A stretch of DNA of 64,000 nucleotides from a virus (Duplodnaviria; Heunggongvirae; Uroviricota; Caudoviricetes), in IMG/VR virus record IMGVR_UViG_2839610755_000002. One strand, 5' to 3'. The notes below the pieces were generated by a model. The model was not told where the DNA came from, searched no databases, and saw only the letters and a list, made by a program, of their open reading frames with translations. Both the position numbers and the translations under genes were made by a program. This document shows, one piece after another, positions 40,741-59,562 of this stretch; the stretch's first letter is position 1; the number at the start of each line of letters is the position of its first letter.

Positions 40741-41409
40741 ATGGCTGGTTTCTTTGATGACATGTTTGAGGACACAGAACCATCACAACAAGTGACTGGT
40801 GATAACCTCCCGGACACCGAATCGGATCCGGATATTCCAGGCGAAGGTTCTGAACTGATTGAAGAGGAAGATATTGATGCTGAAATCGAAACCGATGGTG
40901 TTAACGTTGGTAATATTGTTGATCCTGTGGAGGACAATCACCTTCCCAATCTGGATCACGGCCTGCTTAGTGATTCTGGTGTGCGCCACCGTTATCAAGG
41001 TCATGCAGTTTTTAATAACCTTGTGCGGATGGACTGGCTCAAAGCAATCAAGCTAGACCCTGACTCATTCGATGCAGTTCTGTATCGCGCAATACCTTAC
41101 AGAAACAAAAATGCACCTGAAACGGTACCTGAAATAATAGAACCGAACCAACGCATATATGACTATCAGGATCCAGAACTGATAACGGCCCTCGACTGCC
41201 CGGATGAGATGGACGCCTTCTACGCGCTATACGACGGCAGTGATAATACGGGAATTAGCGACAGTGCTTTAATCCTTCGGTTAGCCGCCGTCAATGTGCC
41301 AGTGGGTTCTATGCTCGAATGGCTGGAACAGCTGTCAGACGGCACAACCATTCGCCGCTTCTGGTACATCCATAAAATATTCAATTACGGCACTGCCAGG
41401 GTAGGCTGA
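40741..41409 (+). CDS. acidic hypothetical protein, 3' end truncated by IS insertion
   Basis: The ORF's stop codon TGA is the first 3 nt of the IS left end; without the IS the frame would run about 21 codons further. Confidence 0.4.
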
Positions 41410-41460
41410 ACCGCCCCGGAAATCCTGGAGACTAAACTCCCTGAGAAAGAGGTAAACAGG

Positions 41461-41787
41461 ATGACTAAAAATACTCGTTTTTCCCCCGAAGTCCGTCAGC
41501 GGGCGATTCGTATGGTTCTGGAAAGTCAGGATGAATATGACTCACAGTGGGCGGCAATTTGTTCCATTGCCCCAAAGATTGGCTGTACGCCGGAGACTCT
41601 GCGTGTCTGGGTTCGCCAGCATGAGCGGGATACCGGGGGCGGTGATGGTGGGCTCACCAGCGCTGAACGTCAGCGTCTGAAAGAGCTGGAACGTGAAAAT
41701 CGTGAACTGCGCCGCAGTAACGATATCCTTCGCCAGGCTTCCGCTTATTTTGCGAAGGCGGAGTTCGACCGCCTCTGGAAAAAATGA
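41461..41787 (+). CDS. IS3-family transposase OrfA
   Basis: 108 aa with a helix-turn-helix and leucine-zipper-like region; overlaps orfB. Confidence 0.85.
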
Positions 41788-42674
41788 TGCCACTGCTGGA
41801 TAAGCTGCGTGAGCAGTACGGGGTCGGACCGGTATGCAGCGAACTGCATATTGCCCCGTCAACGTATTACCATTGTCAGCAACAGCGACATCATCCGGAT
41901 AAACGCAGTGCCCGTGCGCAGCACGACGACTGGCTGAAGAGAGAGATACAGCGCGTATACGATGAAAATCATCAGGTGTACGGTGTGCGTAAAGTCTGGC
42001 GTCAGTTGTTACGGGAAGGAATCAGGGTGGCCAGATGTACAGTGGCACGTCTCATGGCGGTTATGGGACTTGCCGGTGTTCTCCGGGGTAAAAAGGTCCG
42101 TACGACCATCAGCCGGAAAGCCGTTGCCGCAGGCGACCGCGTAAACCGTCAGTTCGTGGCAGAACGACCTGACCAGCTGTGGGTGGCTGATTTTACTTAC
42201 GTCAGCACATGGCAGGGCTTCGTCTATGTGGCGTTTATCATTGATGTGTTTGCCGGATACATCGTGGGGTGGCGGGTCTCATCGTCTATGGAAACGACAT
42301 TCGTGCTGGATGCGCTGGAGCAGGCGTTGTGGGCCCGTCGTCCGTCTGGCACCATCCATCACAGCGATAAAGGCTCTCAGTATGTGTCACTGGCCTATAC
42401 GGAGCGACTAAAAGAAGCCGGATTACTGGCATCAACAGGGAGTACAGGCGACTCGTATGACAACGCGATGGCTGAGAGCATCAATGGTCTTTACAAAGCG
42501 GAGGTAATACACCGTAAGAGCTGGAAAAACCGTGCAGAAGTGGAACTGGCCACACTAACGTGGGTGGACTGGTATAACAATCGACGATTGCTGGGAAGGC
42601 TGGGCCATACTCCTCCGGCAGAAGCAGAAAAAGCTTATTATGCTTCCATCGGAAACGATGATCTGGCAGCCTGA
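41784..42674 (+). CDS. IS3-family transposase OrfB (DDE catalytic domain)
   Basis: 296 aa; identical to the 58197..59087 protein. Confidence 0.85.
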
Positions 42675-42768
42675 GTTCACAGATAAAACACTCTCCAGGA
42701 AACCCGGGGCGGTTCAGGCAGTTTGTTTTATTGCGTGCCTTCACGCGCCTTTGAAGGGAATTTCATCG

Positions 42769-43554
42769 GTGATTCTGAATAATCAGGAATGGCTACTGGC
42801 CATCTTTAAGAAAAAAGGTCTTACTCCAACCGGTAAGCTGGAATTTGCCACTATTGATGGCATTGATTCGGCGCTCGCACAGGCTTTAAACGAAGCGTTC
42901 GACTCACAAGTTGTCAGCTTTAATGATCGCATTAACCAGTCGTTCTGGGAGTTCCTGAAACGCACACCAAGAGATCGCATAACGCTCGGCACTTTTAGTG
43001 ATGTGAAGGAGTGGTTGTCGTCATTTGAAGCCGATCGCGCCGGGCGCAAAGATACAGCCTCTGCTGGCCCGGTAAATAAGCTGGCAATGCCGCTTGTGAA
43101 TCTGTCTCGTTCTCCCGCGTTTTCAATTTATGAAGGTGAACTGTGCCGGGATAATTACGATGAAGGGCATGTCACCAATGAAAATGATGAGATTGAAGCC
43201 CTGGTATCTACTATCCCTTTCTCACTGGAATATTCGCTATGGATAGCCAGTGACGAGAAGGAATCTCTTGGGATGGTTACAACTGCATTAGCATTCTGGC
43301 TACGAATGTATGCCAGCCTCGGGCAGGCATCTTTCACTCACATTGCCAATGTCGGCGGTTATGAGATACCGGTTACCTGTTACATAGAAGGGCAAAAATC
43401 AATCGCATTTCAGGATCTGACCACCGGCACCGCCGACAACAGGCTGTTCGCGGTTGGATTGAACCTCACCGTTGTGGCGGAACTTCCTATCCTGGCTTAT
43501 ATGCAGCAAACCACCGGCACCATAACGGTAAAAGCGAAAATTCTGGAGGAATGA
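42769..43554 (+). CDS. hypothetical protein (start GTG after an AAGGGAA ribosome-binding site)
   Basis: Track ORF 42640..43554 begins inside the IS; the first native start is the GTG at about 42769. Confidence 0.4.
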
Positions 43555-43555
43555 G

Positions 43556-57165: not shown

Positions 57166-57954
57166 ATGCTGGAAAAAGACTACCAGTTATCCGCATATAA
57201 AAAATTGGCCGCCGCCGGTGGGATGAAAACACCTGGTGCCATAACATCGGCACGAAACAGTGCTAACACAGCAAAACTGCTTGCAGAAGAATTGACCGGA
57301 TTAATTCTGGATACAATTGTCTATCCCGACACTATTACCAGCTATGTTTCAACGATCAGAACAACCACAACCGGCTTAACGAACATTGGAGAACTGGCAA
57401 CTAAGCACGCGGACCTGTTGGCTGGTTATGCAGATCTGTCAATGCTGCTTCAACTCGATATTGGTTGGGATGTTTACTGCCGTGCTAATGAGCGAGAAGT
57501 TTCAGAACTGCCGATCTCTATTGCCATTGGTGATGTGAATATTACTAAATCGCTTGAGGACGCTGTTAACGCGCTTAATACATCAAGTTTAGTCGCTGCA
57601 ATGGGGGAGATTAACCAGGCCCTTAACACTGGCTCAGAAAGCTCGTCAGGCTCTGGTTCAGGCGGCGGCACTGCCACTCCCCCACCAGCACTAACAGAAG
57701 AGCAAATTGAATCTCTGAAAGTAGCAACTGAACAGTTTGGGGTTGTTTTCAACCAGACAACAGCACCCACAACTGCGTTACAACAGCAGTATGAACGAGC
57801 GAATGAAAGCGCCAACGTAGCCATAACTGCTTATAACCATGCTATCGGTACCGCGCTTGCGGAAGCATCAGCAAATAAGGCCAGCACAGCCAGCGCAGTC
57901 GCCGCTTTGGTTCCTGATTCTGTTCTTGATGAATTAAACAAAGCGGCACGGTAA
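57166..57954 (+). CDS. hypothetical protein with Ser/Gly-rich linker
   Basis: Internal start MLEKDYQL preceded by AGGAG; track ORF 57109..57954. Confidence 0.4.
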   Translation: MLEKDYQLSAYKKLAAAGGMKTPGAITSARNSANTAKLLAEELTGLILDTIVYPDTITSYVSTIRTTTTGLTNIGELATKHADLLAGYADLSMLLQLDIGWDVYCRANEREVSELPISIAIGDVNITKSLEDAVNALNTSSLVAAMGEINQALNTGSESSSGSGSGGGTATPPPALTEEQIESLKVATEQFGVVFNQTTAPTTALQQQYERANESANVAITAYNHAIGTALAEASANKASTASAVAALVPDSVLDELNKAAR

Positions 57955-57993
57955 CAAAGGACTTCATTGATAATTTTTCTTCAGGAGGAAGAC

Positions 57994-58154
57994 ATGTCAT
58001 TCTTTTCTACGTTAAAAACAGCTTTGTCTTTGAAGGAGAAACTTGCTGCTACTGGTGTTCTTGTTCTGATTTGCGCACTTGTTGGTGCTGGGTTTGCATG
58101 GGAACGTCATCAGCTAAAGCAAGCCATGGAGAAAATTGGCAGTCTTGATCAGGC
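57994..58154 (+). pseudogene. 5' fragment of a transmembrane/coiled-coil gene interrupted by IS copy 2
   Basis: MSFFSTLKTALSLKEKLAATGVLVLICALVGAGFAW... with AGGAGG upstream; the frame runs into the IS. The same frame resumes after the IS (about 59468-59654). Confidence 0.45.
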
Positions 58155-58196
58155 TGAACCGCCCCGGGTTTCCTGGAGAGTGTTTTATCTGTGAAC

Positions 58197-59087
58197 TCAG
58201 GCTGCCAGATCATCGTTTCCGATGGAAGCATAATAAGCTTTTTCTGCTTCTGCCGGAGGAGTATGGCCCAGCCTTCCCAGCAATCGTCGATTGTTATACC
58301 AGTCCACCCACGTTAGTGTGGCCAGTTCCACTTCTGCACGGTTTTTCCAGCTCTTACGGTGTATTACCTCCGCTTTGTAAAGACCATTGATGCTCTCAGC
58401 CATCGCGTTGTCATACGAGTCGCCTGTACTCCCTGTTGATGCCAGTAATCCGGCTTCTTTTAGTCGCTCCGTATAGGCCAGTGACACATACTGAGAGCCT
58501 TTATCGCTGTGATGGATGGTGCCAGACGGACGACGGGCCCACAACGCCTGCTCCAGCGCATCCAGCACGAATGTCGTTTCCATAGACGATGAGACCCGCC
58601 ACCCCACGATGTATCCGGCAAACACATCAATGATAAACGCCACATAGACGAAGCCCTGCCATGTGCTGACGTAAGTAAAATCAGCCACCCACAGCTGGTC
58701 AGGTCGTTCTGCCACGAACTGACGGTTTACGCGGTCGCCTGCGGCAACGGCTTTCCGGCTGATGGTCGTACGGACCTTTTTACCCCGGAGAACACCGGCA
58801 AGTCCCATAACCGCCATGAGACGTGCCACTGTACATCTGGCCACCCTGATTCCTTCCCGTAACAACTGACGCCAGACTTTACGCACACCGTACACCTGAT
58901 GATTTTCATCGTATACGCGCTGTATCTCTCTCTTCAGCCAGTCGTCGTGCTGCGCACGGGCACTGCGTTTATCCGGATGATGTCGCTGTTGCTGACAATG
59001 GTAATACGTTGACGGGGCAATATGCAGTTCGCTGCATACCGGTCCGACCCCGTACTGCTCACGCAGCTTATCCAGCAGTGGCATCAT
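58197..59087 (-). CDS. IS3-family transposase OrfB
   Basis: Identical to the 41784..42674 protein. Confidence 0.85.
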
Positions 59088-59410
59088 TTTTTCCAGAGGC
59101 GGTCGAACTCCGCCTTCGCAAAATAAGCGGAAGCCTGGCGAAGGATATCGTTACTGCGGCGCAGTTCACGATTTTCACGTTCCAGCTCTTTCAGACGCTG
59201 ACGTTCAGCGCTGGTGAGCCCACCATCACCGCCCCCGGTATCCCGCTCATGCTGGCGAACCCAGACACGCAGAGTCTCCGGCGTACAGCCAATCTTTGGG
59301 GCAATGGAACAAATTGCCGCCCACTGTGAGTCATATTCATCCTGACTTTCCAGAACCATACGAATCGCCCGCTGACGGACTTCGGGGGAAAAACGAGTAT
59401 TTTTAGTCAT
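59084..59410 (-). CDS. IS3-family transposase OrfA
   Basis: Identical to the 41461..41787 protein. Confidence 0.85.
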
Positions 59411-59562
59411 CCTGTTTACCTCTTTCTCAGGGAGTTTAGTCTCCAGGATTTCCGGGGCGGTTCAGGCTGTTAAGGAACGTGATAAGTCAATAATGGATCT
59501 TAACCAGACCATTGAGACGATGAACAAAGCAGAGCAACATTTTCACAGCCAGGAAGTGAAAA

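Follow-up and report, generated by a model that had tools for sequence, protein, structure and literature searches.

Two separate IS629 insertions in inverted orientation interrupt gene 7 and ppfA of a P1-like phage-plasmid

When two identical copies of an insertion sequence (IS) bracket a segment of phage DNA, it may be asked whether they arrived separately, travelled together with the DNA between them, or owe their arrangement to a later rearrangement or to faulty assembly. This question is raised by the IMG/VR virus record IMGVR_UViG_2839610755_000002, of which a stretch of 64,000 nucleotides (hereafter the window) carries two identical copies of the IS3-family element IS629, one in gene 7 and one in ppfA of a P1-type genome. 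We found that the two insertions are recent and independent of each other, and very probably they were received as separate events by a P1-like plasmid prophage of the Escherichia coli O157:H7 TX 376-2/F1273 lineage.

A first-pass annotation, made from the sequence alone, had described two identical 1310-bp copies in inverted orientation, with their left inverted repeats (IRL) outward, flanked by direct GGC repeats and each disrupting a gene. All of these features were recovered. Copy 1 (41407-42716) and the reverse complement of copy 2 (58155-59464) showed 0 mismatches, and the orfA-proximal end faces outside in both copies, as orfA lies on the + strand in copy 1 and on the - strand in copy 2. 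A window-wide repeat search returned a single long inverted pair, of about 1315 nt, with arms 15.4 kb apart. The identity between the copies stretches just one base past each element end, so the boundaries of the repeat are those of the element. On the + strand, the window reads GGC-IS-GGC twice. Comparison with IS-free P1-like genomes, which the annotation had suggested for reconstructing the empty sites, gave a clear result: when the IS and one GGC are removed, the exact sequence of the E. coli plasmid pTX376-2 is obtained at both sites. In pTX376-2, in a second sister plasmid, pF1273-3, in phage Ro157c2YLVW and in P1, gene 7 is intact and ppfA is uninterrupted, with one GGC per site. Given a single GGC in the empty sites and an exact join of the flanks there, the 3-bp duplications of the target are real and both events are simple insertions. 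Each of them is a standard IS3-family insertion, in which 3 bp of the target are duplicated, and the assembled molecule retains the parental gene order. The coordinates of all features are collected in Table 1.

Table 1. Positions of the two IS629 copies, their target duplications and the neighbouring genes in the window.
Feature	Position	Strand	Description
IS629 copy 1	41407..42716	+	1310 bp; IRL at 41407, right inverted repeat (IRR) at 42716
Copy 1 contents	orfA 41461-41787, orfB 41784-42674, ALIL pseudoknot 41742-41858	+	Pfam/Rfam
IS629 copy 2	58155..59464	-	1310 bp, exact reverse complement of copy 1; IRL at 59464
Copy 2 contents	orfA 59084-59410, orfB 58197-59087, ALIL pseudoknot 59013-59129	-	Pfam/Rfam
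Target-site duplication, copy 1	41404..41406 and 42717-42719		GGC; pTX376-2 empty site CCAGGGTAGGCAGTTTGTT, single GGC
Target-site duplication, copy 2	58152..58154 and 59465-59467		GGC on + strand; pTX376-2/Ro157c2YLVW empty site CTTGATCAGGCTGTTAAGG, single GGC
Bracketed block, 15,438 bp	42717..58154		Native P1-type backbone; equals pTX376-2 82535-96077 + 97388-99288, collinear, 100% identical
Truncated P1 gene 7 (tail stability)	40741..41409	+	222 aa versus 242 aa in P1/pTX376-2
Displaced 3' remnant of gene 7	42720..42782	+	20 codons and stop; overlaps gene 24 start
Gene 24 (baseplate/tail stability, 261 aa)	42769..43554	+	Intact; begins 52 nt 3' of IS629 IRR
ppfA 5' fragment	57994..58154	+	Codons 1-54 including the N-terminal transmembrane segment; reads 12 codons into IS629, then stop
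ppfA 3' fragment	59468..59729	+	Contains Q116* (TAG, 59652-59654)
mlp (Rz1-like lipoprotein, predicted o-spanin)	59563..59895	+	Intact, 3' of copy 2; lipobox LSGC

The same footprints bear on whether one of the copies could be an assembly artefact, that is, a repeat that was wrongly placed or duplicated. In its favour, the copies do not differ at any position, such genomes hold multiple IS629 copies, and repeats of this sort are where assemblers tend to err. Nevertheless, this explanation is very unlikely, as each copy has unique flanks together with a perfect 3-bp duplication of a triplet that is single in the empty site, which is the footprint of transposition, and as both copies are full length with canonical TG...CA termini.

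With regard to the duplicated triplet itself, a preference of the element for GGC targets was considered and ruled out. Read in IS orientation, the duplications are GGC for copy 1 and GCC for copy 2, and other IS629 copies on related plasmids are flanked by CAT, GTT and AAG; a GAG duplication accompanies the 95-96% identical IS3-family relatives in pF1273-3 and pLR-48_1. Because the two duplications differ in IS orientation, the GGC common to both on the + strand is a coincidence and defines no target motif.

This coincidence lends some appeal to reading the 18-kb IS629-cargo-IS629 unit as a composite transposon, in its present state or in its origin: the cargo lies between IS copies in inverted orientation, and the outer triplets (41404-41406 and 59465-59467) are both GGC on the + strand, resembling the duplication of a whole unit. 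The cargo, however, is resident P1 backbone that keeps its native order and orientation, and it is 100% identical to the sister plasmids that are IS-free at these sites. The inner flanks rejoin the outer flanks with exact restoration of gene 7 and ppfA, and each IS comes with an inner and an outer duplication of its own. Moreover, the 18-kb unit was not found elsewhere in phage, plasmid or complete E. coli genome collections. A further difficulty, given the chemistry of the IS3 family, is that both outer ends would be IRL; copy-out-paste-in transposition in this family normally joins IRL to IRR of a single element. We therefore regard a composite transposon as extremely unlikely. As an origin of the arrangement, composite transposition is refuted by the sequence comparisons. 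As a future possibility, composite mobility, which the first-pass annotation had deemed conceivable, found no support in a native interior and a unit present nowhere else in these collections; it is mechanistically unfavoured.

A third alternative is that intramolecular replicative transposition made one copy from the other, or that the block has already been inverted by recombination, and it would account for two copies that are identical, inverted and located on the same replicon. Intramolecular inverted transposition or an odd number of inversions, however, would reverse the block, and each IS would then stand between a GGC and a GCC. Instead, the block runs in the same order and direction as in P1, pTX376-2 and pF1273-3 and the two duplications at each IS match, which identifies the assembled molecule as the parental isomer and leaves this alternative with a very low probability. 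One copy could still have been the donor of the other through an ordinary excised-circle intermediate, or the donor could have been chromosomal; the sequence fits both.

Independent insertion of the two copies does not preclude later rearrangement between them. Inversion by homologous recombination is generally expected between inverted repeats of 1.3 kb, and this pair would allow the 15.4-kb block to be inverted in a RecA-dependent manner. The inversion anticipated in the first-pass annotation is therefore plausible and a sound prediction, although the parental orientation is the only one observed. The predicted inversion junctions are AACCCGGGGCGGTTCA joined to GCCTGATCAAGACTGC and AATAAAACAAACTGCC joined to TGAACCGCCCCGGGTT, and the predicted recombinant junction had 0 matches in viral contigs. 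With the host IEE (IS-excision enhancer), a factor that stimulates IS629 excision and adjacent deletions (PMC9943667), the copies would also be a substrate for excision or adjacent deletion. The sequence itself shows no inversion, excision or adjacent deletion at either copy.

The element had been labelled IS629-like, which understated its identity, as it is IS629 itself (IS3 family, IS51 group). Copies annotated as IS629 in several Stx2a-converting phages of E. coli O157:H7 match it from end to end with 100% identity, and the IS629 of VT1-Sakai is 99.9% identical. In the sister plasmids, the NCBI pipeline gives this protein the label 'IS3-like element IS1203 family transposase'. The features expected of IS629 and the IS3 family are all present, namely the length of about 1.31 kb and the sequence identity, overlapping orfA and orfB with a frameshift signal, TG...CA ends and a 3-bp duplication. 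OrfA matches Pfam HTH_Tnp_1 (2.4e-12) and OrfB matches HTH_21 and the rve DDE domain (9.3e-28). An A-rich slippery run, GGAAAAAATG, is located at the orfA/orfB overlap, and the ALIL frameshift pseudoknot (Rfam RF01497) was detected in both copies at 121.5 bits, compared with a gathering score of 50. At the ends of the element, 25-nt inverted repeats of the TG...CA type match imperfectly, at 22/25 positions, TGAACCGCCCCGG(AAA/GTT)TCCTGGAGA.

The window is a P1-type phage-plasmid whose + strand is equivalent to P1's minus strand (NC_005856). Plasmid pTX376-2 (99,810 bp, from E. coli O157:H7 strain TX 376-2) showed 2 mismatches to the 64-kb window outside the IS copies. Both fall within positions 1-41406, the remainder having 0 mismatches, and the two structures differ in their IS positions only. 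These sole base differences are located at 24178 (C/T) and 35456 (A/G). The single IS629 of pTX376-2 lies at 96078-97387, inside rdgC/hrdC, with the duplication CAT; the window has no IS at this site and holds a single CAT at 56256-56258. Plasmid pF1273-3, from strain F1273, is empty at both IS629 sites of the window and carries a 95%-identical IS3-family relative at 11956-13265, in a baseplate-region gene, with the duplication GAG. The window, pTX376-2 and pF1273-3 can thus be described as three near-identical O157:H7 P1-like plasmids for which IS location is essentially the sole difference. The annotation of the two sister plasmids also contains signs of further decay, including a frameshifted 6.8-kb N-6 DNA methylase (darB-like), a frameshifted KilAC antirepressor and a partial ash gene. 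The decay of this prophage lineage may already have been under way before the IS629 insertions.

At the gene 7 site, copy 1 provides the stop codon of the 222-aa gene, as had been proposed: the TGA at 41407-41409 is formed by the first 3 nt of IS629. The continuation of the interrupted frame, originally put at about 21 codons, consists of 20 codons and a stop that have been displaced to the far side of the element. In the translation of 42717-42782, the first G comes from the duplicated GGC at 42717-42719. Copy 1 thereby removes the last 20 residues of gp7. The lost C-terminus contains the motif GSL[FY]YC[VI]P[SA]R.F, which is conserved in the counterparts from Cronobacter phage JK004 and even phage D6, at overall identities of 77% and 39%, respectively; the Pfam search returned no family for gp7, gp24 or Mlp. 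The insertion also parts gene 7 from the next gene, as annotated, and puts 1.3 kb between it and genes 24, 6 and 5, which belong to the same late operon. Genes 7, 24, 6 and 5 were all found to be essential in the CRISPR interference (CRISPRi) essentiality map of P1 (PMC10695390), which itself warns that such knock-downs are polar on downstream genes. The essentiality score of gene 7 may, through this polarity, be partly due to genes 24, 6 and 5; a gene 7 amber mutant is, however, also recorded (PMC10695390).

Downstream of copy 1, gene 24 keeps its GTG start and an AAGGGA Shine-Dalgarno-like sequence. A promoter and terminator scan of the sense strand of IS629 gave nothing above the shuffled expectation, with no convincing terminator or outward promoter. 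An open reading frame of 304 aa (42640-43554) begins at an ATG in the 3' end of copy 1 and is in frame with gene 24, with no stop in between. The 43-residue N-terminal extension of gp24 that it would encode is probably fortuitous.

The small transmembrane/coiled-coil gene that copy 2 had been reported to split was identified as ppfA (140 aa), which is interrupted after nt 161, in codon 54. PpfA has an N-terminal transmembrane segment, LAATGVLVLICALVGAGFAW, and weak coiled-coil-type Pfam matches. The mlp gene overlaps the 3' half of ppfA in a different reading frame, and the insertion point lies upstream of the mlp start. This arrangement fits the two-component spanin architecture of the Rz/Rz1 type, with ppfA as the predicted i-spanin. 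In P1, ppfA and mlp have been described as a predicted spanin pair that is experimentally unverified (PMC9025707), and both genes are nonessential for plaque formation (PMC10695390). In the Introduction of PMC9025707, ppfA is called the o-spanin and mlp the i-spanin; the sequences, with the LSGC lipobox in Mlp and the transmembrane segment in PpfA, point the opposite way.

The ppfA gene also carries a nonsense mutation, Q116*, resulting from a change of CAG to TAG that is synonymous in the mlp frame (codon 30, GCC to GCT). Q116* is common to pTX376-2 and pF1273-3, in which it is annotated, and absent from Ro157c2YLVW and P1. As the mutation is common to sister plasmids in which the site is IS-free, copy 2 struck an already damaged gene. 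The simplest order of events suggested by these sequences would be the nonsense mutation first and IS629 later, so that copy 2 would have split a predicted inner-membrane spanin gene that was already truncated.

The block between the copies, given as 15.4 kb in the first-pass annotation, measures 15,438 bp. The cargo listed for it, comprising baseplate-like genes, one icd/ant-like module, ban, tRNAs, dmt and hrdC, was found in full by means of the sister annotation and RNA searches. Its gene content is as follows: genes 24, 6 and 5; c4-icd-ant; ban (dnaB); four tRNAs; plp; dmt; hrdC/rdgC; uhr; upfB; and the 5' part of ppfA. Three of the four tRNAs are for Thr, Tyr and Asn, and one has a CAU anticodon. 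The latter (49543-49618, - strand) is assigned to Met by ARAGORN, while the NCBI pipeline calls the identical sister-plasmid gene tRNA-Ile; it is probably a lysidine-type Ile tRNA corresponding to P1 trnI. Direct repeats of 94-98% identity at 16851-18007 and 45270-46343, 28.4 kb apart, constitute two icd/ant-type immunity modules and are a potential substrate for deletion by homologous recombination. The inner module is preceded by a C4 antisense RNA (46568-46653, - strand) and its a1/b1 targets (46721-46773, - strand).

Neither insertion was encountered elsewhere in the collections searched. The 32-nt junction between gene 7 and IS629 had 0 matches in viral, species-representative genome and metagenome contigs, and the junction between IS629 and ppfA had 0 matches in viral and genome contigs. 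Among 5,426 complete E. coli genomes, 100-bp junction probes gave no contiguous match; the matches obtained were two-piece joins only, from nearby but different insertions in 95NR1/95JB1 and LR-48. No record with both insertions was present in phage, plasmid or complete E. coli genome collections.

Five related P1-like plasmids of Shiga toxin-producing E. coli were considered as possible carriers of the same insertions, and none shares them; all five represent independent events. Plasmid pUTAK-13-1 gave 100% query coverage, with its IS copies in other places, namely between genes 25 and 7 and further upstream. Of the others, pE2855-2 has IS629 in gene 6, p95NR1A has IS629 in the start of gene 24 (strains 95NR1 and 95JB1), p7_55_62A-3 has an IS629-family element in rdgC and IS91 in ppfA, and pLR-48_1 has an IS3-family relative in upfB. 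The two copies of pUTAK-13-1 form an inverted IS629 pair as well (26027-27336 on the - strand and 30199-31508 on the + strand, 2.9 kb apart). Their duplications, GTT and AAG, are intact, so this plasmid was assembled in the parental orientation too.

IS629 also adjoins deletions in two of these plasmids. In p95NR1A, the copy at 6689-7998 has the unmatched flanks GGC/AAC and adjoins a deletion of genes 24-6-5-ant-ban-tRNA-dmt; in pE2855-2, the copy at 4475-5784 has the unmatched flanks TGG/GTT and adjoins a deletion extending from gene 6 through ban. In both cases, much of the block that is bracketed in the window has been lost. Such losses would be expected after recombination between direct copies or after an IEE-associated deletion next to the element (PMC9943667). 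O157:H7 strains carry 22-25 IS629 copies, 62% of which are on prophages, and no sequence-specific hot spot was reported (PMC3271280). With about one IS per plasmid and hundreds of such plasmids, our counts do not demonstrate a hot spot either.

As for the consequences, the insertions suggest a prophage that probably fails to produce infectious tailed particles. Its persistence as a plasmid is still possible, we infer, because repA/oriR, par and phd-doc are untouched. One could go further and propose that the IS629 insertions were selected to ground the prophage, with tail assembly and outer-membrane disruption disabled, as a stable non-lytic plasmid of Shiga toxin-producing E. coli, the inverted pair additionally acting as a recombinational flip that alters how genes 24, 6 and 5, or the second c4-icd-ant module, are expressed. 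IS insertions or IS-adjacent deletions do recur in the late tail operon and in the rdgC-ppfA region (UTAK-13, E2855, 95NR1, 7-55 62A, LR-48 and TX 376-2). This recurrence is compatible with selected grounding and, equally, with random insertion at the observed IS load, and we regard the proposal as a whole as improbable.

Several points weigh against the interpretation of two separate insertions into a P1-like prophage of O157:H7. Both insertions are known here solely as assembled sequence, in which there is a very slight chance that an assembler misplaced the repeat. The host and the remaining ~37 kb are deduced from the sister plasmids, the source replicon being absent from the collections searched. 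The loss of gp7 function is presumed from the truncation. Finally, polarity on genes 24, 6 and 5 may be mild, given that gene 24 has its own ribosome-binding site and that no convincing terminator was detected.

As strain-specific markers, the two separate IS629 insertions are of the sort on which IS629-based typing of O157:H7 relies. They point to a probable tail defect in this P1-like prophage, which should hence be regarded as a plasmid rather than as a transmissible phage. They also flag the 15.4-kb block as one that long-read assemblies may show in two orientations, or as lost by IS-mediated deletion. The practical value is otherwise limited. The mechanism is already known and represents typical strain-to-strain IS629 variation, with nothing new mechanistically; as IS629-driven diversification of prophages and plasmids in enterohaemorrhagic E. 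coli is well documented, no new question is opened.

IS629 is the most abundant and most active insertion sequence of O157:H7, and the two insertions resemble the IS629 polymorphisms of O157:H7 prophages and plasmids in the 1310-bp element, the frameshifted orfA/orfB and the 3-bp duplication, as well as in the preference for prophage DNA, the strain-specific positions and the inactivation of genes. They differ in their sites, as gene 7 and ppfA of a P1-like plasmid were found to be struck in this way in no collection searched. Plasmids p95NR1A and pE2855-2 share with the window the backbone, the IS629 element and the late tail operon region that was struck, but their IS629 copies adjoin deletions and have unmatched flanks, whereas the insertions in the window are simple and nothing has been deleted.

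In comparison with composite transposons of the Tn5/Tn10 type, the likeness is confined to an identical inverted IS pair around a DNA segment. The cargo in the window is resident rather than imported, each IS has its own duplication and there is no sign of movement as a unit; the transposition chemistry of the IS3 family also disfavours the use of two IRL ends. A further parallel is offered by the resident IS1 of P1 and by the IS-rich defective prophages of O157 Sakai, in which, as here, an IS lies within a temperate phage genome; IS insertions contribute to prophage decay. IS629, however, belongs to a different IS family from the IS1 of P1, and in the window it has entered an essential tail gene and not a dispensable region.

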